The notes beneath the pieces were generated by a model. That model did not search any database, was not told the origin of the DNA, and saw only the letters and a program-made list of their open reading frames with translations. Positions 29,078 through 51,910 of a stretch of DNA of 64,000 bases are shown piece after piece. Position numbers and translations under genes: made by a program. This DNA comes from an uncultured delta proteobacterium. GTDB taxonomy: Bacteria; Desulfobacterota; BSN033; UBA1163. Where the stretch lies: assembly GCA_963731045.1 (NCBI GenBank), contig CAVSVC010000052.1, positions 102,947 to 166,946 of the forward strand, in the 5' to 3' direction. The first letter of the stretch is position 1; each line of letters starts with the position of its first letter.

Positions 29078-29176
29078 AACTGGAATAATGGAACAGTGGA
29101 ATGTTGGGTTAATCCAAGAATCTTTTAAAATCCGGAATCTCATCGGTTCCATCTTTCCAACATTCCATCTTCATTC
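29078..29176. repeat. octamer-repeat hairpin element (TGGAATAT-type), copy E1
   Basis: ctggaataatggaacagtggaatgttggg ... ccaacattccatcttcattcc. It is nested between GCATAGAGCA-type arms. Confidence 0.7.
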
Positions 29177-29204
29177 CCCTCGTCTATGCTCCATGCCCTG
29201 TGCA

Positions 29205-29787
29205 TTACTGTTCGTACGGAACCCAGTAATAGTCCAGCACCGTATTCGTAGGTTTTTTTGTTCTGAATTCGGCCTTCACCTTCATCCCGATGAGCGGCTC
29301 ACCGTAGAGGAGATAGCTCTTGGGGATCGTGGCCAATCCGGGGATCTCCACATCGATCTGCCAGTAAGGCGTCGAAAGCTCGATACCGATCCCTGCGTAA
29401 ACGACCTGAGTAAAGGCGTAGATCGTGCCGATCACCGGGTTGGGCAAGCGTCTTCCAGTTCATCTCCGTGTGGCAGTCGGGACAGTGGCCCCGGGGTGGA
29501 ATCCAGAGACGTTTTTCCGGGCAACGACCGTTTGGACAACGGGTGGCCATCAGTTTGCCCTTCCTCAATCCCTCAAAGAAAGGGGAAAGCATTCCGTAGG
29601 TATGAACATGGGTAATCGATCGGGGCCATTCGATCACCGTGGCCGGTTTGTCCTGTCGGATTTTCGTTACTTCCCCGGTAAATTTCGTTTCTTTCCTTTT
29701 GCTTGGCTGGGCTTTCTTCTTGACCGGAGCGATCTTCTTGGTCTTTGCCTGAACTTTTTTCTTTATCTCCACCTTTTTCTTTGCCAT
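29205..29787 (-). CDS. DUF35 OB-fold/zinc-ribbon protein (BbsA/SCPx-thiolase partner) with Lys-rich N-terminal tail; frameshifted (~29440-29460)
   Basis: ..RCPNGRCPEKRLWIPPRGHCPDCHTEMNWK.. (ORF 29299..29787) continues as ..PVIGTIYAFTQVVY.. in ORF 29205..29447. The break is at a CCC run. The N-terminus is MAKKKVEIKKKVQAKTKKIAPVKKKAQPSKRK, with AAGGAGG upstream of the ATG. Confidence 0.75.
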
Positions 29788-29809
29788 AAGGTTTTTCCTC
29801 CTTTCCCCT

Positions 29810-31181
29810 TTACCAGTTCTTTCTCAGGATGCCTACGGTCACATGCGAACCCACACCCGCATGAGAAACCCAGAGGGCCTGTTTGCCCGTTTCGGGGATC
29901 TGGAGACTCTGCCAGTCCTTGGGTTTCTCTTTGCCCCATTTCTTCCAGATCTTCGAATCACCGTGGAATTGATCATATTTCTGCTGCAATTGCCACAGAC
30001 ACTCGGCGGCCTGAAATATCCCGGTCGCACCTACGGCATGCATCGTTCCCAGAAGGCCGCCGGAAAGGTTGGAAGGGCATTTGCCGCCATAGTAGGCATC
30101 CCCGGATTCGATATAATCCTGCTCCTGGCCGTAAGGTCTGAGACCAATATCTCCATAGGTCTGGAGATCGCTTATGGTGAAGGCGTCGTGAAGCTCTACG
30201 AGATCCAGATCTTCCAATGGGTTTTGAATGCCGGCCATACGGTAGACCAGCCAGGCTGCAAATCGGGCCGCAAGGAAGCTCTCAAATCCGGGGAACCGGC
30301 TCCCTTTTTCAGTGAGGCTCCTTATACGTCTCCGGTGTCTCGTGGGGGAGTAAAGGAATTTCCATGGGGCGCCGGTCCGCCACCCGCAAGGTATGGGTGC
30401 CTCCGCAGATAAAGAGCTCACAGGGATGATCGGTTAATTTGTAGGCGGTCTCCTCGTCGCAGACCAGGGCACAGGCCGCCCCGACGCTCATGGCACAGCA
30501 TTCCAGAAACCGAAGCGGGTAAGCGGATATGGGGCTCTTCAGGACTTCCTCGACGGTGTGCTTCCCGGGTTGCTGGGCATAGGGGGAAGAACAGGCATAG
30601 AGACGGTTCTTGACGGCGATCTTGGCCCGTGTGACCTCGGAGACGTTGAAGGCCCAGGCAAACCGGTTGGCCATGGGGGCATAATAGGAAGAGTAGATCC
30701 GACCCAGACGGGTTTCAAAGTCCTTGCATGCCGCGGTGGAGATGTAGAAGTTCCCCGTACGGGTGTCGACCTCGTCCATCCGCTCCCAGCCGGCAGCCAG
30801 GGCCACATTGGCGTACCCGGAGGCAACTGCCATGGCGGCATTGAGTATCGTTGATCCTCCGGTCGCCCCGCCGGTCTTGATCCCCGTATTGTAAAGAGGA
30901 TCGAGCCCCAGATAGTCGTGGATCTTTGCCTCACAGAGAAGTTGATCCTGAAAATGGTCGGCAAACTCCCCGTAGGCCGCGTAATTGATCAGCCCCTTGA
31001 CCTCCAGGGGATCCATTTTGAGATCGTTGTCTTCGAGCAGGTTCTTGAAGGCGATCATCACCAGTTCTTCCAGTTTGTACTCGGGGAAAAATTTCCTGTA
31101 GGCGGTCGTTCCCCCGGCCACCATGAAGACCCTTCGATTCCACTTCGGGATTCTTAAGTTGCCTTCTTTGAATGTGATCAT
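29810..31181 (-). CDS. SCP-x type thiolase family protein (thiolase-like, DUF35-associated), frameshifted (~30330-30380)
   Basis: N-part ORF 30309..31181 (..MVAGGTTAYRKF..) and C-part ORF 29810..30421 (..FESFLAARFAAWLVYRMAGIQNPLEDLDLVELHDAF..GGLLGTMHAVGATG..). A 5-C homopolymer at about 30341 is the likely indel site. Confidence 0.75.
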
Positions 31182-31367
31182 GCCGGTCCCTCCTGAACTC
31201 GTAGTGGTGCCCCGTCACCCTGAAAGGTGTTTCCCCGTGGGCGTTCCCTTTCAGTCCCGACCTTCTGCTCCATAACTCATAACGCCGAACTTTACAACCC
31301 TCCCTTCTTCCCGAAGATCCGTCCGGGATTATCACGTTCGACATCTTGAACTCCGGAGTTCCAACTC

Positions 31368-31775
31368 TCATTGGCGCGGTTTTATGTTCTCCCTGCCCCA
31401 TTGAACTGCGGTGTCAATCGGTGTTCCCGGGGTGAAAACGGCCTTCACTCCGATTTGCCTGAGCCGGGGGATGTCTTCTTCGGGAATGATTCCTCCGCCG
31501 AAGACCAGAATGTCCTCTGCTCCTTCGTTCTTAAGAAGTTCAATCACCTTCTCGAAAACATCGTTGTGGGCTCCTGAAAGGATCGACAATCCGATCCCGT
31601 CGACGTCTTCCTGAATGGCGGTGGCGACAATCTGCTCGGGTGTTTGATGGAGGCCGGTGTAGATGACCTCAAAGCCTGCGTCCCGAAACCCCCGGGCAAT
31701 GACCTTGGCTCCCCGATCATGGCCATCCAGACCCGGCTTGGCGATGAGGATTCGAATCTTACGGTCCGAAACCAT
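31368..31775 (-). CDS. B12-binding small subunit of acyl-CoA mutase, copy 2
   Basis: [22 protein letters not shown] motif; paralog of 22642-23043. Confidence 0.9.
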
Positions 31776-31810
31776 CGGTTTCACCAGAATCCCGGCATAG
31801 GCGCAAGGCG

Positions 31811-31948
31811 CATAGCGTCACAAAGCACAGAGCATAGGGCATAGCGGAATTTTGGGTTATCGAACTTCGGGTGATCGGATTTGTTTGAAATTTGATACTT
31901 GGGATTTGATGTCGTTCCATATGCTCTCTGCCCTACGCCCTATGCTTC
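31811..31948. repeat. intergenic inverted repeat with GCATAG(G/A)G-type arms
   Basis: gcacagagcatagggcatagcgg ... ccatatgctctctgccctacgccctatgc, flanking a TTGGG/GATTTG-rich centre. Confidence 0.6.
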
Positions 31949-31949
31949 T

Positions 31950-33623: not shown

Positions 33624-33663
33624 GTGTCCACCCCCACCCATCCCTGCCTTCGGCGGACAGGGT

Positions 33664-33715
33664 AGATTTCAGATTTCAGATTTGAGATTTAAGGTTGAGA
33701 AATATCTGCAATCTG
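33664..33715. repeat. tandem-heptamer hairpin (AGATTTC/AGATTTG units with inverted partner)
   Basis: gatttcagatttcagatttgagattt ... aaatatctgcaatctg. Confidence 0.5.
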
Positions 33716-33752
33716 CCATCCGTGCCTTAGGGACGACAGGTGAGATTCGGAC

Positions 33753-35687
33753 TCAGCAGACCTCTTTGATTTGAGCGATGATCTGGTCGGTCCTGAAATG
33801 TCTCAGGCTGATCGCTCCGGAAGGACAGACGGCGTTGCAGGCTCCGCACCCCTTACACAGGGCCTCGTTGACCGCCATGATTCTGCAGTAGGGATCGATC
33901 TTCAACGCCCGGTATTCGCAGACCTGTTCGCAAAGGCCGCATCCCGCGCAGAGAAGACGATCCACGACCGCGGTGATGGGTTCGATTTTCACTCTTCCCG
34001 CGAAGAGAGGGGTTGTCGCCCTGGAGGCTGCGCCGTGGGCCTGAGCGAGGGTGTCGCTGAGATCTTTGGGCCCCTGACAGGCCCCTGCCAGAAAGATCCC
34101 TTCCGTCGCCGTATCCAGGGGACGCAGTTTCGGATGAACTTCCAGATAGAACCGATCGGGCCCTTGGGAGAGTTTGAGAAGACCCCGCAGATGATCCGCG
34201 TCCTTTCTCGGGGTGAGGCCCGTTGCGAGGACGACGAGATCGGCCTCCTCTTCGTAGGGCTCTCCCAGGAGTTCATCCTCCGCCTTGACGATCAGTCTTT
34301 CCCCTTTCCGGTAGATCTCGGAAGGGATTCCTTTTCTGTAGAAAATGCCTTTTCGTTGGACCTGATCGTAGAATTCTTCATGGCCCTTTCCAAAGGCCCG
34401 CACATCCATATAACAGACCGTTACCCGTGCGGCGGGGAACCGGTCCTTCAAGAGACCGGCCTGCTTTGCCGTATACATGCAGCAGACCCTGGAGCAGTAT
34501 TCGTTCCCCACGGTTTTATCTCTTGATCCCACACATTGAATGAACAGAATGCTTTCGGGTTCCTTTTCATTGACGAGAAGTCTGCCCCGGGTGGGCCCGT
34601 CCTCGGCAAGGAATCGTTCCAATTCAAGACCCGTGATCACGTTCCTGTAACGGTCGTATCCATACTCGGGCTTCAGCCCGGGGTCGAAGGGGTCATATCC
34701 TGTGGCAACGATGATGGCTCCCACCTCGATTCTGAGTTCGACTCCGACCTCTTCAAACCGAATCGCCCCCTCCGGACACGCCTCTCTGCATCCGGCACAT
34801 TCCCCCCTGGTGAGGAAGAGACAGTTCTCCGAGTCAATGAGATAGGCAGAAGGAACGGCCCGGGGAGACGGAAGATAGATTGCCGTCCGTTCGATCAATC
34901 CCGAATCAAATTCACTGGGGACTCTCACGGGACAGACCTCTTCACATTTCTTGCACCGATTACATTTTTCCGGGTCGACGTACCGGGGATGATGCCTCAC
35001 CCGGACATTGAAGTTTCCCACATATCCTTCCACTTCCACGACCTCCGACTGAGGAAGGAGATGAATCAGGGGGTGGTTCGACACCTCCTCCATCTTGGGA
35101 AGGAGATGGCTGGCGGTTTCCTCAAGAGTAGGAAAGGTGCGATCCATCTTCAAAAGCTGTCCGCCCAGGGTCGGGGATTTTTCCACTAAGTAAACCTCAA
35201 AACCCGCGCGGGCGATATCGAGGCTGGCCTGAATGCCTGCAAGGCCTCCGCCGATGACCAGAACGGCAGGAGTGACATTGACCTCCTTCTCCTGCAGGGG
35301 TTCGTGGCGGGAGACCTTTGCAACGGCCGCAGCGATGAGGTCCATTGCCTTGAGGGTCCCTTTTCCCTTATCTGGATGAACCCACGAACATTGTTCGCGG
35401 ATGTTGGCCATCTCGAAAAAATAAGGGTTGAGTCCGGCGGCTCGTACAGCCTTCCGGTAGGTCAGTTCATGCATCCGCGGGGAACAGGCCGCAACCACAA
35501 TCCGATCAAGACCCAGGTTCCGGATATCGTTCTTGATCAGATCCTGGCCCGGGTCGGAACACATGTACTGGTAGTCTCGAACCATGGCCACAGAGGGAAG
35601 CGTCCGGGCAAAGGCCGTTACCTGACCGATATCCACTGTTGCGGCAATGTTGACCCCGCAGTGACAAACGTAAACACCAATTTTCAT
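33753..35687 (-). CDS. heterodisulfide reductase subunit A-like flavoprotein (HdrA-like, FAD + multiple [4Fe-4S])
   Basis: N-terminal KIGVYVCHCGVNI Cys cluster, GGGLAGIQAS FAD motif, internal CNRCKKCEEVCP and C-terminal CAGCGLCEQVC..CKGCGACNAVCP ferredoxin motifs. Length is 644 aa. Confidence 0.85.
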   Translation of the reverse strand: MKIGVYVCHCGVNIAATVDIGQVTAFARTLPSVAMVRDYQYMCSDPGQDLIKNDIRNLGLDRIVVAACSPRMHELTYRKAVRAAGLNPYFFEMANIREQCSWVHPDKGKGTLKAMDLIAAAVAKVSRHEPLQEKEVNVTPAVLVIGGGLAGIQASLDIARAGFEVYLVEKSPTLGGQLLKMDRTFPTLEETASHLLPKMEEVSNHPLIHLLPQSEVVEVEGYVGNFNVRVRHHPRYVDPEKCNRCKKCEEVCPVRVPSEFDSGLIERTAIYLPSPRAVPSAYLIDSENCLFLTRGECAGCREACPEGAIRFEEVGVELRIEVGAIIVATGYDPFDPGLKPEYGYDRYRNVITGLELERFLAEDGPTRGRLLVNEKEPESILFIQCVGSRDKTVGNEYCSRVCCMYTAKQAGLLKDRFPAARVTVCYMDVRAFGKGHEEFYDQVQRKGIFYRKGIPSEIYRKGERLIVKAEDELLGEPYEEEADLVVLATGLTPRKDADHLRGLLKLSQGPDRFYLEVHPKLRPLDTATEGIFLAGACQGPKDLSDTLAQAHGAASRATTPLFAGRVKIEPITAVVDRLLCAGCGLCEQVCEYRALKIDPYCRIMAVNEALCKGCGACNAVCPSGAISLRHFRTDQIIAQIKEVC

Positions 35688-35700
35688 AACCTACCCGACT

Positions 35701-35887
35701 GGAAGACGGGAATATTGGAATATTGGAAGAATGGAATATTGGGTCAAAAAAAGAATCCAGAGAAAACAAGACGCTTTGTTCTTGTCGCTCGTTACTCCAC
35801 TATGCCCGTATTCCTTTTCTTTCTTCATTCCATCTTTCCATTTCTTCTGTATCATGGTTTTCCCATTGTTCCAGTATTCCATTCTTC
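35701..35887. repeat. octamer-repeat hairpin element (TGGAATAT-type), copy E2
   Basis: ggaagacgggaatattggaatattggaagaatggaatattgggtc ... ttccagtattccattcttccatcattcc. Confidence 0.75.
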
Positions 35888-35889
35888 CA

Positions 35890-37221
35890 TCATTCCGTTT
35901 TTCGTTTCCTTCCTCTTGCGAGCAGGGCACAGGCCTGAGAGGCTGCGCCGCTTGCCTGGGTAACCGTGTCGGGAATATCCTTGGGGCCCTGACAACACCC
36001 CGCGAGAAACACCCCCTCCACGCTGCTGAGGGTCGGATCGAGGCCGGGTGGTTCACCATAGAAGCGATCCGGCGATCTTTCCAGCCCGAGGATCTCCTTC
36101 AAGACATCCTCCTCTTTCCGGGGGGTGAGCCCCGCAGCCAGGACGACCAGGTCCGCTTCCAGTTCGAAAGGTTCGCCCAGAAGGGTGTCTTCTCCCCTGA
36201 CGATCAGTTTCCCGTTTCTCCGGTAGATCTCCGAAGGGTTGGCCCGCCGGTAAAGGACCCCTTCCTTTTGAACCCTTTCATAGAATTCCTCAAAACCCTT
36301 TCCAAAGGCCCTGACGTCCATATAAAGGACCGTGATCCGGGCGTCAGGGATTTTTTCCCTGAGAAGATGGGCCTGTTTGGCCGTAGCCATACAGCAGACC
36401 CTGGAACAGTATTCATTGCCCACGGTCTTGTCCCGTGATCCCACGCAGTGGATGAAGACAACCTCTCCGGGCTTTCTTCCCTCGATCAGGATTTCTCCTT
36501 TCGTGGGGCCCGAGGCGGAACAGAGCCTCTCGAATTCGAGGCCATGAAGAACGTTGGGATAGATCTTGTAGCCGAATTCGGGCTTGCGCCCCGGATCGAA
36601 GAGATCGAATCCCGTGGCCACGATGATGGCTCCCACGTCGATCTCGGTGATTTCTTCCCGGTCTTCGAAGAAGATCGCCCCTGCCTTGCAGGCGTCCACA
36701 CAGGTTTTCCTGCATTTGCCCCTGCTGAGCCACAGGCAGCTTCGGGGGTCAATCGCAGCTTTCAACGGCACGGCCTGGGGAAAAGGGATGTCAATGGCCC
36801 TTCGTGGGACCAGGCCCTCATTGAATTCAGAAGGAACGCCCTTCTTCAACGCACAGGCTTCCATGCAATCCCCGCAGCCCGTGCAGCGGTCCCGGAGAAC
36901 ATAGGTGGGTTTCTTTTTGACCTTGATCTGGAAGTGTCCGGCGCTTCCCCGGACCTCCGCCACTTCCGCACAGGTGTGGAGCCGGATCTTCGGATGATTG
37001 GCCGTATCGACCATTTTGGGTGTAATGATGCAGGCTGAGCAGTCGAGAGTGGGAAAGGTCTTATCCAGCTGGGCCATATGGCCGCCAATGGAAGAGCTCC
37101 TTTCGACCAGGTGGACGGTGAATCCTTTCTCCGCCATGTCGAGGGCCGCCTGCATCCCGGCGATGCCGGCGCCGATCACCAGAGCTTCGGGAATCACATG
37201 CTGCAACTGTTCGGTCTTCAT
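35890..37221 (-). CDS. HdrA-like FAD/FeS oxidoreductase, short paralog
   Basis: VIGAGIAGMQAA FAD motif, CTGCGDCMEAC ferredoxin motif, and shared ..HCVGSRDKTVGNEYCSRVCCM.. block with HdrA1. It lacks the N- and C-terminal Cys clusters of the longer paralog. Confidence 0.8.
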   Translation of the reverse strand: MKTEQLQHVIPEALVIGAGIAGMQAALDMAEKGFTVHLVERSSSIGGHMAQLDKTFPTLDCSACIITPKMVDTANHPKIRLHTCAEVAEVRGSAGHFQIKVKKKPTYVLRDRCTGCGDCMEACALKKGVPSEFNEGLVPRRAIDIPFPQAVPLKAAIDPRSCLWLSRGKCRKTCVDACKAGAIFFEDREEITEIDVGAIIVATGFDLFDPGRKPEFGYKIYPNVLHGLEFERLCSASGPTKGEILIEGRKPGEVVFIHCVGSRDKTVGNEYCSRVCCMATAKQAHLLREKIPDARITVLYMDVRAFGKGFEEFYERVQKEGVLYRRANPSEIYRRNGKLIVRGEDTLLGEPFELEADLVVLAAGLTPRKEEDVLKEILGLERSPDRFYGEPPGLDPTLSSVEGVFLAGCCQGPKDIPDTVTQASGAASQACALLARGRKRKTE

Positions 37222-37231
37222 AGCCTACTCA

Positions 37232-37409
37232 GAGTGGAAAAATGGAATATTGGAATAATGGAAAAATGGAAGAATTGGAATATTGGGTTCCCAAAAAGAA
37301 CCGGGAGAAAAGAAGTGTTCTTTTCTTTGTTACCCATCATTCCAGTATTCCACCGTTCCAATATTCCTTTTCCACATCATTCCATCATTCCATCATTCCA
37401 ATCTTCCAG
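37232..37409. repeat. octamer-repeat hairpin element (TGGAATAT-type), copy E3
   Basis: gagtggaaaaatggaatattggaataatggaaaaatggaagaattggaatattgggttccc ... cccatcattccagtattccaccgttccaatattcc...cattccatcattccatcattccaatcttccag. Confidence 0.75.
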
Positions 37410-37414
37410 TTCAT

Positions 37415-38569
37415 TTATTTTAGTTTTCCCATCAGGGCCGAGGCGATGGTGTTCTTCTGGATCTCCTTGGTTCCTTCGTAGATCTCCGTGATCTTTGCAT
37501 CGCGGTAGAACCGTTCCACTTCATATTCGGTGATATAACCGTAGCCTCCGTGAATCTGGATGGCTTCATCCGCCACCTCCACCGCCGTTTTGGCCGCGAA
37601 CATCTTTGCCATGGAGGTGAGTTTCGGATCGATCTTCTTCCGGTCGAAATTCCAGGCGGCCTTGTAGGTGAGCAATCTGGCTGTCTCGATCTTGGTCGCC
37701 ATGTCGGCGAGTTTGTGCTGGGTCGCCTGAAAGTCAATCAGGCGTTTGCCGAACTGTTTCCTCTGCAGGGCGTACTCCAGTGCCCGGTCAAAGGCCCCCT
37801 GGCTGATTCCCAGGGCCTGAGCCGCGATTTCGATCCGGCTTTCATCGAAGAACTCAATGACCTGGTAGAAACCTCTGTTCTCTTCACCGATCAGGTGGGA
37901 TGCCGGGATGGTGACGTCACTGAACGAAATCTCGGCCGTCGAGGTCATGCGGATGCCCATCTTGGGGGTGATTTCCGTCGCCTCCAAACCCTTTGTTCCC
38001 TTTTCCACCAGAAGGGTACACTGGCCGCGGTAAGGAGGATGGGCATGGGGATTCGTCTGGCAGAGGACGATAAAGAAGTCCGCAATCGATCCGTTGGTGA
38101 TAAAGGTCTTCGTTCCGTTGATCACAAAGGTATTGCCCTGTCTGGTCCCCGTCGTGGAGAGTGAGGTAATATCACTTCCATGGTCAGGTTCCGTGTAAGC
38201 ACCGGCGGAGATCGCTTCGCCTTTGGCCACGGGAATGAGAACTCTTTTCTTCTGCTCCGCCGTTCCGAAGTGGAGGATGATCTCCGAGGAGAAGTCGACG
38301 AGGCTCAGAGCGATCCCCACTCCGGAATCCTTGCGGCAGAATTCCTCCACAATCAGAATATTTTCAAAAACACCATATCCCTGGCCTCCATACTCCTCGG
38401 GGTAGTGGATACCGACAAATCCCAGTTTGCAGGCCTTCTTCCAGAGCTCTCTCGGAAAGGTATGGGCCTGTTCCCACTGAAGGATTTTCTCCTTGTCAAA
38501 TTCTCCCGCGGCAAAGCCTTTCGCTGCCTGCTGAATGTCCTTCTGCTCTTCCGTCAACTCGAAGTCCAT
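37415..38569 (-). CDS. acyl-CoA dehydrogenase
   Basis: Intact ACAD with MDFELTEEQKD N-terminus, ..EPDHGSDITS.. and ..IYEGTKEIQK.. C-terminus. GGAGAAG lies upstream of the ATG at 38569. Confidence 0.9.
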   Translation of the reverse strand: MDFELTEEQKDIQQAAKGFAAGEFDKEKILQWEQAHTFPRELWKKACKLGFVGIHYPEEYGGQGYGVFENILIVEEFCRKDSGVGIALSLVDFSSEIILHFGTAEQKKRVLIPVAKGEAISAGAYTEPDHGSDITSLSTTGTRQGNTFVINGTKTFITNGSIADFFIVLCQTNPHAHPPYRGQCTLLVEKGTKGLEATEITPKMGIRMTSTAEISFSDVTIPASHLIGEENRGFYQVIEFFDESRIEIAAQALGISQGAFDRALEYALQRKQFGKRLIDFQATQHKLADMATKIETARLLTYKAAWNFDRKKIDPKLTSMAKMFAAKTAVEVADEAIQIHGGYGYITEYEVERFYRDAKITEIYEGTKEIQKNTIASALMGKLK

Positions 38570-38600: not shown

Positions 38601-38727
38601 ACTGGAATAGTGGAATCTGGAATATTGGAATCATGGGATCATAAGAGAGTCTTAAAACAGTTCATTGTCTTGTTCTGGATTTTCTGCTGTACCCAATATT
38701 CCAATCTTCCATTATTCCAATTTTCCT
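38601..38727. repeat. octamer-repeat hairpin element (TGGAATAT-type), copy E4
   Basis: actggaatagtggaatctggaatattggaatcatggg ... cccaatattccaatcttccattattccaatttt. Confidence 0.7.
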
Positions 38728-38733: not shown

Positions 38734-39714
38734 TTATTTTTGTTTCATTCCCTTGATCTTTTCTTTGAGCACGGGAATGATCTTGAACAGATCCCCTACG
38801 ATGCCGTAGTGGGCGAAGCTGAAGATCGGCGCCTTGGGATCCTTATTTACGGCGATGATCGTTCCGGCCCCTTTCATGCCTGCCATATGCTGAAAGGCGC
38901 CGCTGATTCCAAGGGCGAGATACACCTTGGGCTTCACAGTCTTTCCGGACGTTCCCACCTGACAGGCCTTCGGAAGCCACTTCTTGTCCACCACAGGTCG
39001 GGAACAGGAGAGGGTTCCCCCCACGGCGTCAGCGAGCTCTCTCACAAGGGGCAGGTTTTCGGGATCCTTGATTCCCCTTCCCACGGAGATCAGGATATCT
39101 GCCTGTGTAATGTCCACCTCGCCCGCTGCGGCCTCCACGTACTGGAGAAAGCGCTTTGGAAGAAGTTCGTCGGTCAGAGGAGAAGGCAACGGGGTGATCC
39201 GACCTTCCATGGGACCATTTTCCGAGGAAGAGAAGGCCCCCGGCCGGACTGTGGCCAGGTAGGGACCCGGTTTCCGGAAGGAGACCCTGGCGTTCATCTT
39301 CCCGGCATAAAGCTGGCGGGTCACGGAGAGGGATTCCCCCTCCACATCGACGGCGATACAGTCGGTCGCCAGGGGAATTCCCATGGACGCGGCAAGGCTT
39401 GGCGCAAGGTCCATTCCCATGCCGGTGTGCCCCATCAGCGTCAGGAAGGGTTTCTTCTCCGACAGGAGCCCGGTCAAAACTTTCTGATAGGTTTCAGAGT
39501 TGAAGACGTCGAGGCGGTCGTCTTCAATGAGAAAGACCTGGTTTGCTCGTGATTTGAGCGCCTCTGCGAAATGTCCGACCCCTTTTCCAAGGAGGGCAAC
39601 ATGAATTTCCCCTCCCACATCCCTCGCCAATTGTCTCCCTTTGGAAACCATCTCCCACGTGATGTCCCTCATCTCCCCGGTTCGATGTTCGGCGACAACG
39701 AGAATCTCCTTCAT
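38734..39714 (-). CDS. etfA: electron transfer flavoprotein alpha subunit (EtfA/FixB)
   Basis: 326-aa product with the FAD-binding C-terminal domain (..VYLALGISGAFQHMAGMKGAGTIIAVNKDP..). Confidence 0.9.
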   Translation of the reverse strand: MKEILVVAEHRTGEMRDITWEMVSKGRQLARDVGGEIHVALLGKGVGHFAEALKSRANQVFLIEDDRLDVFNSETYQKVLTGLLSEKKPFLTLMGHTGMGMDLAPSLAASMGIPLATDCIAVDVEGESLSVTRQLYAGKMNARVSFRKPGPYLATVRPGAFSSSENGPMEGRITPLPSPLTDELLPKRFLQYVEAAAGEVDITQADILISVGRGIKDPENLPLVRELADAVGGTLSCSRPVVDKKWLPKACQVGTSGKTVKPKVYLALGISGAFQHMAGMKGAGTIIAVNKDPKAPIFSFAHYGIVGDLFKIIPVLKEKIKGMKQK

Positions 39715-40526: not shown

Positions 40527-40650
40527 ATTGGAAATCCGAATATCGAATATCGAAGTCCGAAACAAATCCCAAATTCAAATTTTAAAAACTCTTGTCCGAT
40601 CTTTGGTTCATTCGAATTTTTGTCTTTCGAGCTTGTTTCGAGCTTCGAAT
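40527..40650. repeat. hairpin with CGAATAT tandem units and near-perfect 20-nt inverted arms
   Basis: cgaatatcgaatatcgaagtccgaaac ... gtttcgagcttcgaatttcg. The arms differ by 2-3 nt and are separated by a loop of about 60 nt. Confidence 0.55.
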
Positions 40651-40664
40651 TTCGTGCTTAGAAT

Positions 40665-41828
40665 TTAGAGCGTTGTTTTGCTTCCCATGGCTTCTGCGAG
40701 TAATTCCGTCACATCCATGACCCGAATCCTGTCCTCGTTGCCGGAGGTCTTCACGGCGTCCTCCAGAGTGAGGACACAGAACGGACAGGCCGTGGCCAGA
40801 ATCTCCGCTCCCAACTCAACCGCATCCCTTACCCTGATTTCGGCAAGACGCTGGCCCGTTTCGGAGGAGGACTCGACCCACATCCTTCCGCCTCCACCTT
40901 CGCAGCAGAGGCTTCGTTCCCTGGATCGATCGAGTTCCTTGAACGTGAGCCCGGGGATGGCCTGAAGGAGGAACCGGGGTTCGTCAAACAGGCCGTTCTG
41001 CTTCCCGAGAAAGCAGGGGTCATGGTAGGTAACGACCTTGTTCAATTTCCGATTCGGGGAAATCTTTCCGGATTCGAGAAGTTTTGCGAGGAGTTGTGTG
41101 GTGTGCTGAACCTCGAATTTCCCCTGCGGGTATTCGTTCTTCAGGACATTGAACCCATGGGGACACATCGTGATGATCCGCTCAACCCCGTGGGATTCAA
41201 AACGGCTCACGTTTTCTTCCACCAGCATTTCGAAGAGACCGGATTCCCCCATTCTCCGGACCTCATTGCCGCAACAGTGTTCCTCGTTTCCCATGATCCC
41301 GAAGTCCACCCCTCCCTGACGAAGTGCGAAGACCAATGCCCTGGCCACCTCCTGTATTCTGGGATCGTAGGACGCTGTGCAGCCTGCGAAATAGAGGGTG
41401 TCCGACCGTTCTCCCTTGGAAAGGTCTTTGATTGGGGGACCCTCCGGAAGGTCCTTCGTCCAATCCACCCTCTTGTTCTTCTGCCTTCCCCAGGGGTTTC
41501 CATGCTTGTAGACGTTTTCGAGGGCCTCGATGATGGTCTTGGGAATGTGCCCCTCTTCTACCAGCATGCCTCTCATTCCGATGATCAGATCCATCGGCTT
41601 CAGTCCTCTCGGACAGCGAAGCGTACAGGTCTTACAGGTCGTGCAGTCCCAGAGCTCTGTTTTCTCGTTCATCCGGTCGAGATTCTTTCCGAGGATGCCT
41701 TCCATCATCAGCCTTCGGATATTGAGCTTCGATTTGAGAGAGACAGGGCAGCCCCCTGTGCATTTTCCGCATTGATAGCAGCCGTACAGATCAAACTTCT
41801 GTGCAAGCACTTCCCGGGATGAATCCAT
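40665..41828 (-). CDS. HdrD/GlcF-like (Fe-S) oxidoreductase with two CCG domains (ETF-associated)
   Basis: N-terminal 2x[4Fe-4S] motifs (CYQCGKCTGGCP; CTTCKTCTLRCP) and two Cys-rich CCG regions (..CCGNE.., ..CCEGGGG..). No TM helices are evident. Confidence 0.8.
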   Translation of the reverse strand: MDSSREVLAQKFDLYGCYQCGKCTGGCPVSLKSKLNIRRLMMEGILGKNLDRMNEKTELWDCTTCKTCTLRCPRGLKPMDLIIGMRGMLVEEGHIPKTIIEALENVYKHGNPWGRQKNKRVDWTKDLPEGPPIKDLSKGERSDTLYFAGCTASYDPRIQEVARALVFALRQGGVDFGIMGNEEHCCGNEVRRMGESGLFEMLVEENVSRFESHGVERIITMCPHGFNVLKNEYPQGKFEVQHTTQLLAKLLESGKISPNRKLNKVVTYHDPCFLGKQNGLFDEPRFLLQAIPGLTFKELDRSRERSLCCEGGGGRMWVESSSETGQRLAEIRVRDAVELGAEILATACPFCVLTLEDAVKTSGNEDRIRVMDVTELLAEAMGSKTTL

Positions 41829-42209: not shown

Positions 42210-42224
42210 GGGCTGGTCAGATTT

Positions 42225-42310
42225 GAGATTTGAGATGTGCGATCTTAGATTGAAGGATCTAAATCTCCAATCTGAAATCACCCATCTGAAATGCTCCAAT
42301 CCATCTGCAA
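42225..42310. repeat. tandem AGATTTG-unit hairpin
   Basis: cagatttgagatttgagat ... atctaaatctccaatctgaaatc ... atctgaaatg. Confidence 0.5.
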
Positions 42311-43172: not shown

Positions 43173-43273
43173 AACCTCCTCTGGAAAGCCGTAAAGCGTG
43201 AAGCTGCAATGGGATTGGAAGGGGTTCCCCTCTTCGCCTTGCCCTGCTTACGACTTCACGACTCATTTTGTTT

Positions 43274-46669: not shown

Positions 46670-46741
46670 GGAGCTTCTCCTCGGGAATGGCCAGCCTCCT
46701 TGGGGCCTTCTGCAAATCGCCCCAAGGGGCTGTGGGTGCCG

Positions 46742-47311
46742 CTACTTCTTGGGAAATACCCCTTCGAAGGGGACAAAAACGTCGCCTTTGTCGGTAAGGA
46801 AGACGGCCATCCCCTCGGTGACCTTGATTCCGAAGGAAAAGTCACCGATCTTCTCATACCAGTTTTTGAGGACGCCCGCAGGTGTGAGATTCAGTGCTTG
46901 AAGTTTTGAGCCCTGGGTCACCGCCAGTTTCCCCAAAACGACCGCTGAATCAAGGATGCTCACGATTCGATACTGGCTTGTCGTATCCGGTGGAAAGTAG
47001 ATCCTGTCATAAGAAACAGGCACATTCAGTTCCACGTAGGAACCTGGAGTCACTTCGAAAGAAAATGCGAACTTCATGTTGTCCAACAAAACATTGTATC
47101 CACTGGGATTGTTGATATGGAATACAAAGGCCAAGGCCAACGGGATACGGGCCGGCGGATCGGCCCAGGGAAATGACCCGGCCACTTCAACCCTTTCGAG
47201 CATGATCTTGGGTTTTCCGGCCACATCGGTCGGCAGCAGCCCTGGCTTGCAGGCCACAAGAGCCGAGATCGCAAAGGACAGCACGAACATCATCAGGAAT
47301 AATCTTCGCAT
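46742..47311 (-). CDS. lipoprotein, function unknown
   Basis: Signal peptide with lipobox (MRRLFLMMFVLSFAISALVAC) at the internal ATG. No recognisable domain. Confidence 0.55.
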   Translation of the reverse strand: MRRLFLMMFVLSFAISALVACKPGLLPTDVAGKPKIMLERVEVAGSFPWADPPARIPLALAFVFHINNPSGYNVLLDNMKFAFSFEVTPGSYVELNVPVSYDRIYFPPDTTSQYRIVSILDSAVVLGKLAVTQGSKLQALNLTPAGVLKNWYEKIGDFSFGIKVTEGMAVFLTDKGDVFVPFEGVFPKK

Positions 47312-47405
47312 AAAAACCTCCTTGCCTGTCTTTCGTGGTAAGGCACAAGTCGTTAGGCGACATTCTTGAAAACCACTTATGAGTTGCGGCTGACGATTCA
47401 CGGGA

Positions 47406-48243
47406 TTAAGTGAGCCATCTCTTCCTTCGTTTGTAGTGCTTCACCTGCCGGAAGCTCTTTCGTTCTCCGATATCCGAGAGACCTAAGTAGAAATCCCGGA
47501 TATCCGGGTTCTCTTTCAACTTCTCGGCGGTATCATGCATCACCAGCCTGCCGTTCTCCAGAACGTAAGCATACGCGGCCACGGTCAGGGCCAATTTCAC
47601 ATTCTGTTCAACCAAGAGCAAGGGGATTCCCTCCTCCCTGTTCAAGCGGGTGATGATTTCGAAGATCTCCTTGATCAGGAGGGGAGCCAGGCCCATGGAG
47701 GGTTCATCGAGAAGCATCAGTTTGGGTTGGGCCATGAGGGCTCGGCCAATGACGGTCATCTGCTGTTCGCCGCCGCTGATATAACCTGCCATGGACATGG
47801 CGACGCTCCACCAGTCTTGGGAAGTAACGATAGACCATCTCGAGCCTTTCTTTCTTGGCGGAACCGGTTCCCCTCAGGTGGGCTCCCACCCGAAGGTTCT
47901 CTTCCACCGTGAGATGTTCAAAGACTCTTCTTCCCTCAATGATCTGGAAGATGCCGCGTCCGGCGATTTCTTCTGCATAGAGGTGATGGATCTTTTCTCC
48001 CATGAACTCAATGCTTCCGTCGGTGACTTCGCCGTCTTCGTGCCTCAGCAGGCCTGAGATCGATTTGAGCGTGGTGGACTTGCCCGCCCCGTTGGCGCCG
48101 AGAAGGGCAACAATCCTTCCCTTCGGCACTTCGATGGAAACCCCTTTGAGCACCAGAATCACTTCGTGATACATGACCTCAACATTGTTGAGTCTCAGAA
48201 TACTCTCCGGAGCATTTGAAACATCAGACCTCTTTTGTTCCAA
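47406..48243 (-). CDS. livF: branched-chain amino acid-type ABC transporter ATP-binding protein (LivF-like), frameshifted (~47800)
   Basis: N-part (..LLGANGAGKST..FPRL) in ORF 47704..48294 and C-part (MAGYISGGEQQM..LLLDEPSMGLAP) in ORF 47406..47798. They join as ..RRHVMAGYISGGEQQM if one C of gtCC is removed. A TTG start at 48243 is preceded by GGAGGAGG. Confidence 0.75.
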
Positions 48244-48269
48244 GGATCTTCCTCCTCCTTCTGATGTTA

Positions 48270-49526
48270 TCACCAGCCCAGCCAGGAAGCCCACTTATCC
48301 GGGAATTTCGCCTTCATATCGATTTCGGCCACGGTTTGGGGTTTCCCTTTGATGACCCGTCCGATTCTGACGACAGAGCTATAACGGTGGTCCGTTGGGG
48401 TAATGGTTACCAGCTGGCCGCCAAATTCTTTCAACCCTTGCCACTCCCGCATGGACTCGAAGGCGTCTTTAATTCCAGGACCGTCCAATTTGCCGGCCTT
48501 ATCCGCCCTTTTCATGGCTTCAACGGCCAAGGTTACCTTTACCCAGCCCTGGACCGCCCGTACCGTGCGGTTTTCCAAGGGAACGCCAGGGTTAAGCTTC
48601 TTGGCGTAGTCCACGACTTTCTTCTTCGCTGGATAGTCATCATTGAAGAGTGCACAGGCGATCAGCCCAATGGTTCCCTCAGCTGCAGGTCCAGCCAACT
48701 TAGGAAGGTTCTCGTCGAAGGCCCAGTGATTCATGATATGGTCCGCTCCGAGACCCAGGGCGTAGGCGTCTTTCAGTGTGGCAGAGGTGGACATGGTGGT
48801 ATTCCCATGCCAGCCCAGGTTGACACCGAAACTCTTTGCAGCCAGGATCTGGCTCTTGGTATCCAGGGCAGTTAAAGGAATATCATAATCCGGCCCGACC
48901 TCGAAGCCAAGCATTGCAGCCTGCTCTTTAATGGCCTTGATCGGAGCGGTTGCAAAGGGGGAGGCTGTGGCGATGAAGCAGGCGAACTTGGGTTTAACCC
49001 CTTTTCCCCTCAGGCCCTGCCATTTCGGATCTTTCTTCCAAACCTCCTCGAACCAGTAGGTGATCGCGCCGCGGGCATTGGTCGAATAATCGACTCCGTA
49101 GACAAAGTTATACGGGGTCTTCTTGGGATCGCAGAGATTGCCTGAGAAAGAACTCGACAGGTAAGGCATCTTGTCTGCGTTGATCGTAGGAGAGAGAGAC
49201 TCGGTATCTCCCGTCCCCCAGCCGAGAACCATGACCACCTTATCATGGTCCCGAAAGCGTTTATACGTCGTGACTGCTTCCGGGACGCGATATCCATAGT
49301 CGTATTGAAAGAGTCGAATTCTCTTTCCGTTGATTCCTCCAGCATCATTGTAGTACTGGACTGCTTCCCGGACTCCGAGGGCTTCGTCCTTGCCTACATC
49401 CGAAGTCGCGCCGGTTGTATCCTGGAGGGCGCCGAGTTTAACCTCCTGCGCTACCGCCCACGAAAATGAAAGCCCGATCATGAGACATGTCAAAATGACT
49501 GAGGTGGTTCTGACGGTCCTTGCCAT
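48270..49526 (-). CDS. ABC transporter substrate-binding protein (LivK-like, Peripla_BP_6)
   Basis: Signal peptide (MARTVRTTSVILTCLMIGLSFSWAVA) plus the periplasmic binding fold. The ATG at 49526 is preceded by AGGAGG. Confidence 0.85.
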   Translation of the reverse strand: MARTVRTTSVILTCLMIGLSFSWAVAQEVKLGALQDTTGATSDVGKDEALGVREAVQYYNDAGGINGKRIRLFQYDYGYRVPEAVTTYKRFRDHDKVVMVLGWGTGDTESLSPTINADKMPYLSSSFSGNLCDPKKTPYNFVYGVDYSTNARGAITYWFEEVWKKDPKWQGLRGKGVKPKFACFIATASPFATAPIKAIKEQAAMLGFEVGPDYDIPLTALDTKSQILAAKSFGVNLGWHGNTTMSTSATLKDAYALGLGADHIMNHWAFDENLPKLAGPAAEGTIGLIACALFNDDYPAKKKVVDYAKKLNPGVPLENRTVRAVQGWVKVTLAVEAMKRADKAGKLDGPGIKDAFESMREWQGLKEFGGQLVTITPTDHRYSSVVRIGRVIKGKPQTVAEIDMKAKFPDKWASWLGW

Positions 49527-49716
49527 GATTAACCTCCTGTTAGGTCTTTCTGCCCAAAGGCTTGACGTGATTCCCCCACCCTGCAAACTCCCACCATCCA
49601 GTGACGTCACACCACCTCCTTTTCTGAGTGTTCAGTGCTTGGTGTTCGTGATAGGTGGATCCAAGGTTCAGGTTCACCTGCACCATCACCAGCCACGATC
49701 ACCGTCCACATTTCTT

Positions 49717-50811
49717 CTAATACGAAAAGGGCCACAAGTTGAAGTAATTCTTTATCTGCCACCAGCGGTAAGAAAGCCCGTTGGGCTCGAAGATCAGGAA
49801 TAGGGAGATGGCCAGCCCGAAGGCGGCCTCCTTGACGAAAAGGAATTTTTCAAGGAGATGCGGCAAAAAAGGCATCAAACCGACAAAGAAGGGGTCCTGG
49901 GTCAAAATGAAAATCAGGGCTTTCAGGCCTTCCGGAATCAGAGTCATGAACAGGGCGCCAAAGATGGTTCCATGGAGGCTTCCGACCCCACCAATCAGAA
50001 CCACCCCCACGAGCCAGAGAGACCAGCCAAATTGGAAGTGTTCCGGACTGACTGCAGCCAGAGAGGTGACCCAGAAGGCTCCCGCAATGCCTCCGATAAA
50101 GCCCGCAACAAAGAAAGCGAGCAGTTTGTAATAAACGATATTGACTCCCATGGTTTCGGCAGCAATATCGTTGTCGCGAATCGCAATCCAGGCCCGGCCG
50201 ATCTTGGACCTCATGAGATTGGCCAAGGCCAGGGTACACAATAAAACGAGCACCACCATCAGGTAATAGACATCCATGTCTGACTTGATGACCCATGGAC
50301 CGATCGTCACCACCCCGGGAGGAATGGAAAAAGCGACTCCTCTTCCTCCGATTTTGCTGACGTATTGCGTAATGAAAAACTCCACGGTGATGAATTGGGC
50401 CGCCATGGTGGTCATGATGAGATAAAATCCCTTGACCCGCGCCGAGGGAAGTCCGAACAGAACAGACCACAAACCTCCCACGATCCCCCCCAGGACCAGC
50501 GTGATCGGGTAGGGGAGATGGAGTTGAAGCAAAGAAAGGGTACAGGTGTAAGCCCCGACTGCGAGAAAGGCCGCATGGCCCAGGGTGACCTGACCGCAGT
50601 ATCCGATAAGCAACTGGACCCCGATCGCGGAAAGGATGGTGTAGCCGACCACGTTTGCCACTCCGACCAGATAATAGCCTGCGAACGTGGGGATCAGGTA
50701 GAACAGAGTGAAGAAGAGGAGGATCATCTTTCCCCAGACGAATTTCGTCTGCCACCAGGCATGATCCTGGCGGTAATACTGGTGATAAACGCCACACGGC
50801 CGGTAACCCAT
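49717..50811 (-). CDS. livM: branched-chain amino acid-type ABC transporter permease (LivM-like)
   Basis: 364-aa polytopic membrane protein of the LivM family. Confidence 0.85.
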   Translation of the reverse strand: MGYRPCGVYHQYYRQDHAWWQTKFVWGKMILLFFTLFYLIPTFAGYYLVGVANVVGYTILSAIGVQLLIGYCGQVTLGHAAFLAVGAYTCTLSLLQLHLPYPITLVLGGIVGGLWSVLFGLPSARVKGFYLIMTTMAAQFITVEFFITQYVSKIGGRGVAFSIPPGVVTIGPWVIKSDMDVYYLMVVLVLLCTLALANLMRSKIGRAWIAIRDNDIAAETMGVNIVYYKLLAFFVAGFIGGIAGAFWVTSLAAVSPEHFQFGWSLWLVGVVLIGGVGSLHGTIFGALFMTLIPEGLKALIFILTQDPFFVGLMPFLPHLLEKFLFVKEAAFGLAISLFLIFEPNGLSYRWWQIKNYFNLWPFSY

Positions 50812-50931
50812 TTCAACCCTCCCAATCCACGCCGTAAGGCGTCAGGGGGAAAAAGACAGGATGAGGATCCCTCATCCGTTACTCTGGTAGCACCCCTTGC
50901 GCCTCACGCCCCACCCCTCACGGTATTTTGA

Positions 50932-51816
50932 TTACACACGTTCGATTCTCGTCCAGCCCCAGAGGCCATAGGGTTTGAACAGAAGGATGACCACCATCAC
51001 GGCAAAAGGGAAGACCTCCTTGACACCGCCCGGGGTGAACCGGCTCAGATAGCCGTCGGCCAGGTTCTGGAGAACCCCGATGACCAGTCCCCCCACAATG
51101 GCCCCGGGAACCGAATTCAATCCCCCGAGGACGACCGCCGGGAGGACCAGCAGCCCCAGATAACCCACGGAGATATTCAACCCGTTGATATTCCCCAGGA
51201 GAGTTCCGCCGACTCCGGAGGCCATGAAGGCGATGGCCCAGGCCAGGGCGTAAACGATCTTCGCGTTGACGCCCACCGAAAGGGCCGCCATTTCATCGTC
51301 GGCAGTGGCCTGCATCGACAGCCCCCATTTCGTGTATTTGAAAAAGATAACAAAGGCGATCAGGAGGATCATCGATGCCACGAACGCCCACAGGTAGACC
51401 TGGCCGACAACGATTTTGCCGAAGAAGATCGGTTCCATCGGAAAGACGGGAGGTGTGAAAACCACGGTATCCGTTCCCCACAACAACTCCACCATGCCTT
51501 TGAAGAAGAAGGAGAGGCCTACTGTGACCATGATGACGCTCAGGACGGGTTCTCCCACCATGGGCCTCAGAAAAAGGTGCTCGGTCAGGAGTCCCAGGAC
51601 GAATCCGACCACCAGCGTGAGAAGGAGGGCGGGAATGAAAGGGATGCCCCAGTTATAGAACATGAGGCAGACATAAGCTCCGATCAGGGTGAGTTCCCCC
51701 ATGGCAAGGTTGAGGACTCCGGAACACTTATAGATGAGCGTCCACCCGAGGGCCACCAGGGCATAGATGCTTCCCACCAGGATCCCGGTGATCAAGAGCT
51801 GTAAGAAGAGTTCCAT
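50932..51816 (-). CDS. livH: branched-chain amino acid-type ABC transporter permease (LivH-like)
   Basis: The internal ATG (MELFLQLLITGILVGSIYALVALGW) is the conserved LivH N-terminus and is preceded by GGAGG. The upstream part of ORF 50932..52014 runs into the repeat element. Confidence 0.85.
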   Translation of the reverse strand: MELFLQLLITGILVGSIYALVALGWTLIYKCSGVLNLAMGELTLIGAYVCLMFYNWGIPFIPALLLTLVVGFVLGLLTEHLFLRPMVGEPVLSVIMVTVGLSFFFKGMVELLWGTDTVVFTPPVFPMEPIFFGKIVVGQVYLWAFVASMILLIAFVIFFKYTKWGLSMQATADDEMAALSVGVNAKIVYALAWAIAFMASGVGGTLLGNINGLNISVGYLGLLVLPAVVLGGLNSVPGAIVGGLVIGVLQNLADGYLSRFTPGGVKEVFPFAVMVVILLFKPYGLWGWTRIERV

Positions 51817-51837
51817 AAAAAACCTCCAGATAGAATA

Positions 51838-51910
51838 CCGGAATATTGGAATGGTGGAATGCTGGAATATTGGAAAACCACTATTCCATTCTTCCGATAT
51901 TCCATTGCTC
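51838..51910. repeat. octamer-repeat hairpin element (TGGAATAT-type), copy E5
   Basis: ccggaatattggaatggtggaatgctggaatattggaaaacc | actattccattcttccgatattccattgctcc, with almost no loop. Confidence 0.7.

Follow-up and report, generated by a model that had tools for sequence, protein, structure and literature searches.

Hairpins of inverted TGGAAT octamer arrays in the spacers of a deltaproteobacterial acyl-CoA oxidation cluster

In a 64,000-nt stretch of the genome of an uncultured delta proteobacterium (assembly GCA_963731045.1, contig CAVSVC010000052.1; hereafter the window), five intergenic spacers of one long minus-strand gene cluster contain hairpins whose arms are themselves rows of a short tandem repeat with the core TGGAA. 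The question raised by this locus is what kind of element can occupy spacers between co-directional genes in this form, how it came to be there, and what it does to the transcript in which it lies. The elements described below are dispersed copies with a rapid turnover at orthologous spacers. We consider, with about even confidence, that they are interspersed palindromic spacer repeats resembling the repetitive extragenic palindromic (REP) and short tandemly repeated repetitive (STRR) sequences, which spread as DNA, are co-transcribed as non-terminating stem-loops and have a REP-like effect on mRNA.

Architecture and setting of the hairpins

On the plus strand, each element consists of 8-nt units with the core TGGAA, a variable centre, and units with the core TTCCA. 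The original prediction, made from the letters of this DNA, had placed such a left array, centre and inverted array in the same five spacers, and all five were found as described, at counts far above expectation. The pattern TGGAANNNTGGAA has 25 matches in the window, all of which are within the five spacers, where 0.35 are expected; GGAATNNTGGAA has 19, every one inside the same spacers (0.38 expected), and the four-unit pattern has nine, again all inside them (0.00 expected). A detector that is blind to the unit family, searching for any k-mer repeated at 7–9 nt spacing and then its reverse complement repeated likewise, returned seven hairpins in the window, all at 29–42 kb, compared with 0.1 in first-order Markov simulations.

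The arms contain three to nine units of the form TGGAAT-R-N at a period of 8, as given by the unit positions in the window elements, and Tandem Repeats Finder reported period-8 arrays on both sides of each centre. The tandem arrays were thus correctly predicted, and the predicted number of four to seven units per arm was too narrow. The consensus of 773 units, drawn from the window and from the related loci, is TGGAA followed by T (56%), R (A 49%, G 40%, C 3%) and N; the 8-nt unit proposed as WTGGAATA therefore stands as an octamer and is better written TGGAA-T-R-N. The left arm mostly closes with TGGGT or TGGGA, the right arm opens with ACCCA, and the distance between the arms ranges from 4 to more than 150 nt. 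The elements are not a CRISPR array, as had been stated, because their 8-nt units are contiguous and stand in inverted arrays, with no 23–47 nt repeats separated by unique spacers. The five elements and their neighbours (all genes on the minus strand) are as follows.

E1, 29078-29176: left arm 29081-29112 with units at 29081, 29089 and 29097 plus TGGGTTAA and TGGGT at 29105; centre 29113-29143; right arm 29144-29170 with TTCCA units at 29147, 29155 and 29163; between an acyl-CoA dehydrogenase fragment (28307-29011) and a 162-aa open reading frame (ORF; 29299-29787).
E1 outer arms of the GCATAG family, 29036-29205: GCATAGAGCAAAGGGCAG at 29036-29056 and CTATGCTCCATGCCCTGTGC at 29182-29205.
E2, 35700-35897: left units 35700-35739; TGGGT at 35740; TTCCA units 35828-35840 and 35861-35897; between two genes for HdrA-like FAD/FeS oxidoreductases (35890-37221 and 33753-35687).
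E3, 37235-37408: six left units 37235-37283; TGGGT at 37284; eight to nine right units 37332-37408; between an acyl-CoA dehydrogenase gene (37415-38569) and the HdrA-like gene 35890-37221.
E4, 38603-38727: left units 38603-38633; TGGGA at 38634; TTCCA units 38691-38719; between the gene for the alpha subunit of an electron transfer flavoprotein (ETF alpha; 38734-39714) and an acyl-CoA dehydrogenase gene with its start codon at 38567-38569.
E5, 51839-51913: left units 51839-51875; no inner boundary; TTCCA units 51884-51913; between an AMP-binding ligase gene (51917-53851) and an ABC permease gene (50932-51817).

E1 is nested within a second hairpin formed by the GCATAG-type arms, giving a hairpin in a hairpin, and the whole E1 spacer has a minimum free energy (MFE) of −57.0 on the minus strand (z = −4.3). 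E2 lies where it was predicted and extends about 10 nt beyond the end proposed at 35887: in the mRNA sense, its 5' arm begins inside the TGA stop codon of the upstream gene (35890-35892), and the element stops about 13 nt short of the next ATG (35685-35687), leaving GGGUAGG free. E3 is the largest TGGAAT hairpin in the window, holds an inner GAAAAGAA/UUCUUUUC mini-hairpin, and has a sense MFE of −72.3 (z = −6.4). E5 is short and nearly without a centre. Near 20039-20269, where a sixth element was sought, there are isolated TGGAATA words and no arrays. The ORF lister places a window ORF (35691-36059, minus strand) within a repeat hairpin, and small ORFs of this sort are almost certainly repeat artefacts.

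The centres of E2 and E3 are roughly three-quarters identical across about 45 nt, as read by eye from their alignment. In addition, a relative introduced below (L128) carries, at the position of E2, the centre of the window E3 in inverted orientation. Because of these two facts, the copies are dispersed copies of one another and not convergent low-complexity sequence, as the shared E2/E3 centre had led the original prediction to propose.

All five elements are flanked by co-directional genes of the minus strand, again as predicted, within an acyl-CoA oxidation cluster that runs from about 23 kb to about 55 kb of the window. The cluster encodes a branched-chain-type ABC transporter, two AMP-forming ligases, a thiolase, a 3-hydroxyacyl-CoA dehydrogenase, an FeS/CCG oxidoreductase, ETF beta and alpha, acyl-CoA dehydrogenases, two HdrA-like flavoproteins, a carboxyltransferase, and two methylmalonyl-CoA-mutase-type enzymes with B12 subunits and MeaB. 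The window elements begin 0–10 nt past the upstream stop codon and finish 10–25 nt before the next start codon, and the Shine-Dalgarno sequences lie outside the hairpins and are unpaired.

The suggestion that the elements are partial terminators did not hold. A consensus scan found no terminator-like site, that is, a stem followed by a T-run, in or beside E1–E4, and the family also occurs inside obligate operons (see below). The elements have no U-tract, and their stems are A/U-rich, unlike the G+C-rich stem of an intrinsic terminator. Across the window, promoter-like and terminator-like sites are both at chance level in the consensus scans, and a promoter or terminator function of the elements was rejected for this reason. 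One sigma-70-like match (TTGACA, 18 nt, TATGCT; 10/12) stands at 29034-29063 (minus strand) in the flank of E1, between the GCATAG and TGGAAT arms, in a window where the overall count of such matches is at chance level.

E2–E5 and the whole E1 spacer fold as long interrupted stem-loops, as had been expected, with z = −3.5 to −6.4 relative to dinucleotide shuffles. When the order of the units in the right arm was permuted, the folding energy was unchanged (mean z +0.2; 16/41 below zero; n = 41), which indicates that the arms are not ordered inverted copies of each other. The stability is due to pairing between cores, whatever the register, with small internal loops recurring at the variable positions. 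For the TGGAAT elements, the sense fold is the more stable in 19 and the antisense fold in 21 (p = 0.86), so that there is no strand bias. In whole spacers the sense fold is favoured (52/77, p = 0.001), but this preference tracks the G+T skew and probably reflects the Shine-Dalgarno region. Strand asymmetry was therefore dropped as evidence of selection at the RNA level, since it follows the G+T skew and vanishes for the TGGAAT elements alone.

The TGGAAT family is one among many unit families of the same design. That design recurs in at least nine more spacers of the minus-strand cluster with other 7–8 nt units, namely GCATAGAG, AGATTTC/G, CGAATAT, GTCGTRAA, GGTGAT, the G-rich GGGGAGG, and GTGAGG. 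The sister hairpins are as follows.

23063-23140: GCATAG(AG) family, GAGCATAGAGCAGAGGGCATAGGG ... CTCTATGCTCTATGCCCCATGCC.
26645-26700: G-rich GGGGAGG/CCCTCCCC family.
31790-31949: GCATAG family with an inner AAATC-type segment, between a methylmalonyl-CoA-mutase-type gene and a B12-binding subunit gene.
33664-33722: AGATTT(C/G) heptamer family.
40530-40665: CGAATAT/CGAAAT family, in the spacer upstream of the ETF beta gene.
42219-42305: AGATTTG heptamer family.
43185-43262: GTCGTRAA-type arms, in the sense orientation GTCGTGAAGTCGTAAGC ... GCTTCACGCTTTACGGC.
49625-49705: GGTGAT-type arms.
50826-50922: a hairpin of another unit family.

The GGGGAGG/CCCTCCCC family recurs in relatives, in the ETF alpha–acyl-CoA dehydrogenase spacer of L122 and inside a TGGAAT element of L121. 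Spacers outside the cluster showed no such arrays when scored by a cruder measure, inverted 5-mers, on an approximate ORF map.

Other features of the cluster were recorded in passing. A 459-nt region upstream of its first gene (54690-55148) holds a pair of long G+C-rich hairpins with almost perfect pairing, GTGTCCCTTCACCCCGGTC...GACCGGGGTGAAGGGACAC and GAAGCTCCGCCCTTTAGGGCGGAGAGCTTC, and may combine the terminator of the preceding unit with the leader of the operon. Three genes appear to be broken into overlapping ORFs that lie in different frames: an acyl-CoA dehydrogenase at 27841-29011 (28307-29011 for the N domain, 27841-28608 for the M and C domains), a thiolase-like gene at 29810-31181 (ORFs 30309-31181 and 29810-30421), which is a single 464-aa gene in the relative L124, and an ABC ATPase at 47406-48294 (ORFs 47704-48294 and 47406-47798). 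These are either pseudogenes or assembly indel errors.

Turnover in relatives and occurrence across phyla

The HdrA-like protein encoded between E2 and E3 has close homologues in assemblies of the Thermodesulfobacteriota/Syntrophaceae type, and nine syntenic loci (L121–L129; 76–92% amino-acid identity) were compared with the window. Related genomes thus carry the elements, contrary to the absence that would have refuted the original prediction. The occupants of three orthologous spacers are as follows.

E4 position (ETF alpha to acyl-CoA dehydrogenase): TGGAAT element in the window, L121, L126 and L127; G-rich hairpin in L122; 21 nt in L124.
E3 position (acyl-CoA dehydrogenase to HdrA): TGGAAT element in the window, L122/L123 and L129; CGAAAT in L121; ATCAGG in L125; AGATTG in L124; CCAAAT in L128; 4-nt gene overlap in L127.
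E2 position (HdrA to HdrA2): TGGAAT element in the window, L126, L127, L128, L129 and a further locus, L052; CGAAAT in L121; 3 nt in L122; 14 nt in L124.

The length of the spacer at these positions ranges from the 4-nt gene overlap to 240 nt. Because the occupant varies or is missing at orthologous spacers, the elements are dispensable, interchangeable between families and remodelled fast. Nesting is common, and in the relatives TGGAAT arms surround GGGGAGG in L121 and a GTCATTCCGGCAAAAGCCGGAATCCAG palindrome in L122, and GTTCGGA arms surround TAGTCT in L121. Another palindromic repeat, GTCATTCCGGCGAAAGCCGGAATCCAG ... CTGGATGCCGGATCAGGTCCGGCATGAC, sits centrally in TGGAAT or other hairpins of relatives (L121, about 6480-6560; L122, about 9840-9930; L126, 4239-4532 and 6612-6903), which suggests that other hairpin elements land preferentially in hairpin loops. 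Public gene callers likewise put small genes inside the hairpins (L128, 1768-1869; L129, 1794-1952; L126, 4145-4339), among them a 33-aa and a 52-aa call in the L128 and L129 elements; together with the window ORF mentioned above they span 33–122 aa, and all are almost certainly repeat artefacts.

The divergence within orthologous copies is uneven. At 4-fold degenerate sites, L128 is 85% and L129 is 66% identical to the window. The outer arms near the genes are kept, the first 35 nt of E2 being identical in L128, and the interiors of orthologous copies differ by large indels. When the outer arms of the window and L129 were pooled, 144/174 positions (83%) were identical, compared with 133/201 (66%) of the 4-fold sites (Fisher p = 2.6e-4). 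The retention of the outer arms points to constraint or concerted evolution. The asymmetry of folding is specific to the position: among E2, E3 and E4 of the window and their orthologues in L121 and L126–L129, the copies at the E2 position favour the sense fold (5/5) and those at the E4 position favour the antisense fold (4/4). This suggests that each orthologous lineage keeps its own fixed polarity, rather than being adapted to the transcript.

When the four-unit pattern was run against one genome per species, at least 120 loci were obtained, against about four chance matches by our own estimate from the size of the collection. The abundance and taxonomic spread given here are lower bounds and possibly biased, and binning errors in metagenome-assembled genomes (MAGs) could inflate the range of phyla. 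Among the matches listed, a forward array followed by an inverse array within 200 nt gave 41 arm pairs, or 40 after overlaps were merged; they come from Desulfobacterales and other deltaproteobacterial MAGs, Bacteroidota, Verrucomicrobiota, Kiritimatiellia, Lentisphaerae/Victivallales, Planctomycetota, Chloroflexi, Gemmatimonadota and Poribacteria. In the same set, 57 of 189 arrays are followed by TGGG in phase, so the TGGGT...ACCCA inner boundary is a character of the family. A comparison of the window with the 120 listed loci gave no DNA similarity at E < 1e-10. Viral contigs gave 17 matches, only about three to four of which are of the hairpin type by inspection of the sequences, with no clear link to phages.

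The setting in other phyla, read from heuristic gene calls among the matches listed, resembles that in the window. The flanks called for 31 elements are co-directional in 26 cases, convergent in four and divergent in one, and the elements usually begin 0–20 nt past the upstream stop codon. Examples within operons are ftsW–murG, oppB–oppC, argB–argD, moxR–DUF58 and consecutive ABC permease genes, which indicates that the family is tolerated within obligate operons.

In Desulfobacterales, the copies of one subfamily end in an asymmetric tail, about 25 nt long and hardly varying, in which TTCCAATTG is followed by GGGCGAAGCCCC or TGAGCGAAGCGAAC and then TAAGTTC; the tail is also written ATTGGGGCGAAGCCCCTAAGTTC or ATTGTGAGCGAAGCGAACTAAGTTC. 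It was found at L009 (2848-2875), L024, L027, L040, L047, L062, L066, L072, L074, L087, L093, L113, L114 and L118. The tail contains GCGAAGC, the sequence of a very stable DNA mini-hairpin. It stands on one side of the element only, in either orientation relative to the flanking genes, as inserted DNA would. This tail is missing from the window copies.

Weighing the explanations

At the level of DNA, the shared centres, the occurrence in either orientation, the nesting, the gain, loss and replacement of copies, the slippage and the centre inversion fit elements such as REP/REPIN sequences or small foldback miniature inverted-repeat transposable elements (MITEs). The anatomy of the elements, their dispersal and turnover, their operon context, their lack of terminator features and the constraint on their outer arms are shown by the sequences; the mode of spread and any effect on mRNA are inferred. 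Copies would spread by duplication or ectopic conversion between spacers, the unit number would be altered by slippage, and the centre would be inverted between the inverted arms. They would persist where insertion is harmless, in the few dozen bases from a stop codon to the next ribosome-binding site of co-directional genes. Transcribed with the operon, each would form a long stem of 5–7 bp core helices (UGGAAU/AUUCCA) with small internal loops every 8 nt, and its pairing would be free of register because any unit can pair with any unit. Transcription and translation would pass through, since there is no U-tract and the Shine-Dalgarno sequence is free. The likeliest effect would be that of a barrier to 3'→5' exonucleases, a site for RNase III/E, or both, which would set the stability of mRNA segments. 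The most likely consequence for the cell would be that segments of the mRNA are protected or processed, by analogy with the REP sequences of Escherichia coli and with the RNase III hairpins in the early mRNA of phage T7, and the role in mRNA stability or processing that was among the original candidates is plausible.

Several observations weigh against this explanation. No consistent target-site duplication was seen at the flanks of the window copies or of the tailed Desulfobacterales copies, nor any direct evidence of transposition. A metagenome scan with the E2/E3 centre module gave only six matches, none with TGGAAT arms, which were taken as chance. The even division between sense and antisense folds gives no signal of RNA-level selection on the transcribed strand of the TGGAAT elements. 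The conservation of the arms may be overestimated, as the alignment of repeats can settle on a favourable register and concerted evolution could inflate identity. Moreover, six assemblies keep a TGGAAT element at the E2 position, a persistence that is hard to square with a purely neutral passenger and hints at selection. A RAYT (TnpA-REP) gene was not found among the roughly 40 window ORFs scanned.

The main rival is that the elements act as DNA, the arms being rows of sites for a nucleoid-associated or regulatory protein on double-stranded DNA or a cruciform, by which the supercoiling or transcription of long operons would be organised. The candidate binders would be IHF/HU, as proposed for Geobacter, gyrase, as at the E. 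coli bacterial interspersed mosaic elements (BIMEs), or a ribbon-helix-helix protein that reads tandem heptads. The strand symmetry of the elements is consistent with such arrays, as is the fact that the core of each unit is conserved and the pairing of its variable positions is not. The same holds for a core and a TGGGT boundary that are retained from phylum to phylum and for the constraint on the outer arms, and the Geobacter authors interpreted the same architecture in this manner. However, more than ten unrelated unit families share equivalent spacers and swap at orthologous positions, which would require many proteins or one non-specific reader. The inter-arm distance is also highly variable, and the elements are located strictly between stop codon and ribosome-binding site within operons and not at promoters, as the single divergent case among the 31 called flanks illustrates. 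On balance, we regard DNA-level arrays as a minority possibility.

Next in standing is the view that the elements are functionless by-products of mutation, in which short inverted repeats in AT-rich spacers would be enlarged by slippage and by template-switch "correction" of quasi-palindromes, leaving neutral junk. Such an origin would agree with their dispensability, including orthologous spacers of 3 nt or overlapping genes, with the quick change of unit number and centre, with the numerous unit families and with the lack of a strand bias. It accounts poorly for the recurrence of the same unit and TGGGT...ACCCA boundary in distant phyla, at a frequency far above our estimate of chance matches, for the non-repeat centres common to copies in separate spacers, for the nearly invariant tail of the Desulfobacterales subfamily and for outer arms that are better conserved than 4-fold sites. 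In addition, the units are not mirror-ordered, contrary to what palindrome correction would produce. We find this origin doubtful.

A bolder proposal is an actively maintained, cross-phylum system of TGGAAT "zipper" hairpins and their sister families, in which a conserved trans-acting factor would read the stem and the TGGGT...ACCCA boundary, and slippage in unit number would be a heritable rheostat that tunes cistron expression in long catabolic operons. The factor could be a structure-specific HUH or other single-strand DNA enzyme that moves the elements; alternatively, the periodic internal loops could be read by an RNA-binding protein or an RNase. We think this proposal unlikely.

Least probable of all is a sequence-specific RNA site, in which the GGA repeats would titrate or recruit CsrA/RsmA, as the original prediction had suggested, or another RNA-binding protein would read UGGAAU and control the downstream cistron: the sense strand of each element does carry 4–10 GGA motifs, just upstream of ribosome-binding sites and in a core conserved across phyla, but CsrA prefers GGA in loops and 25/35 of these motifs are fully paired in the sense folds, with four fully unpaired and a mean unpaired probability of 0.0–0.29; the Shine-Dalgarno sequence is not within the structure, equivalent spacers carry units without GGA (AGATTTC, GCATAGAG, CGAATAT, TAGTCT, ATCAGG and others), both orientations occur without a sense-strand bias, and no csrA was present among the window ORFs scanned, which cover only part of the window.

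Relation to known elements and significance

The kind of element to which the TGGAAT hairpins belong is already known from Geobacter, STRR and REP/REPIN sequences. The nearest counterparts are the class 1–3 "putative global regulator binding sites" of Geobacter metallireducens, which are paired arrays on opposite strands of three to five tandem octa- or heptanucleotides with a variable gap (Aklujkar et al. 2009, PMC2700814). Their units are GTTGCTYN, TCTCCGTS and MTYCTGA, some sites belong to two classes, and one lies between proB and proA; the paired arrays were only catalogued, and IHF/HU sites were guessed (PMC2700814). The elements described here are likewise inverted pairs of 7–8 nt tandem arrays, here of three to nine units, which stand apart by a variable gap, with centres of 4 to about 100 nt, and are multicopy, intergenic (also between co-transcribed genes), divided into several unit classes, and in some cases nested. 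They differ in the unit, TGGAATRN, and in the lineage, so that the architecture is common and the sequence is not. The cross-phylum range, the TGGGT...ACCCA boundary, the nesting, the replacement at orthologous positions and the independence of unit order are not described for the Geobacter sites.

The cyanobacterial STRR hairpins, such as that between hupS and hupL, are also made of tandem short units, and transcript stability or translational coupling has been proposed for them (PMC2670836). In both cases, short tandem units let the spacer of co-transcribed genes form a hairpin. However, STRR units are heptamers with cyanobacterium-specific sequences, usually in one-directional arrays, whereas TGGAAT units have 8 nt, form arrays that are invariably paired in inverted orientation around a defined inner boundary, and occur in anaerobic, non-cyanobacterial genomes (the host here being Thermodesulfobacteriota-like).

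The extragenic, multicopy and palindromic TGGAAT elements share with the REP, BIME and REPIN sequences of Enterobacteria and Pseudomonas their position after the 3' ends of genes, in co-directional or convergent spacers, their co-transcription and their rarity in divergent spacers. Papers on such sequences include one on REPINs (PMC3116915) and that of Di Nocera et al. (PMC3733652). REP, BIME and REPIN elements stabilise upstream mRNA and bind gyrase or IHF; REPs are single imperfect palindromes of 20–40 nt that bear a GTAG/CGTC head and owe their mobility to RAYT transposases. In contrast, the TGGAAT arms are arrays of 8-nt units, 25–75 nt long, and no GTAG/CGTC head is visible at their ends. 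The original prediction that these are not REP, BIME or MITE elements is thus right in that they are not classical REPs, but it was overstated, as their genomic niche and dynamics are REP/REPIN/MITE-like.

Inverted arms that are themselves built of short tandem repeats are known from the FB elements of Drosophila. A MITE with an internal minisatellite has been described in Porphyromonas gingivalis (PMC4596501). The TGGAAT elements resemble MITEs and foldback elements in being non-coding and dispersed, with long terminal inverted repeats, common internal sequence and both orientations; they differ in that no target-site duplication, no defined termini common to all copies and no autonomous partner were identified, and with a length of 70–200 nt they are at the small end of the range. 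The RNase III hairpins of phage T7 early mRNA lie between cistrons and are imperfect, with internal loops; cleavage leaves a protective 3' stem and a free ribosome-binding site. The likeness to the TGGAAT elements is that of imperfect intercistronic stems with internal loops in a long polycistronic transcript. There is no relation in sequence, and the T7 sites are unique sequences, neither built of repeats nor dispersed.

A search of the whole window against Rfam gave no family at the gathering threshold. The sole match at E ≤ 1, to the plant MIR408 precursor in E4 (38605-38725, plus strand), scored 24.3 bits (E = 0.048), below the gathering score of 64, and was rejected as a chance resemblance between imperfect hairpins. 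In literature searches on the TGGAAT motif, and on hairpins built of repeats in Deltaproteobacteria and Syntrophus, no account of this family came up, and it is apparently undescribed. What is new in it is the breadth of phyla, the defined inner boundary, the register-free pairing and the swapping of families at orthologous spacers.

If the scan, with at least 120 loci in many phyla, is a fair guide to how common the elements are, a class of bacterial interspersed repeats has been overlooked. The hairpins yield spurious small ORF calls, can mislead repeat finders and can serve as strain markers. Almost every spacer of the 30-kb operon and its orthologues holds one repeat-built hairpin, and these sites would be where segmental mRNA stability and the stoichiometry of the operon are set. 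Their fast change between close relatives provides natural pairs with and without an element, in slow-growing syntrophs that are hard to study by genetics.

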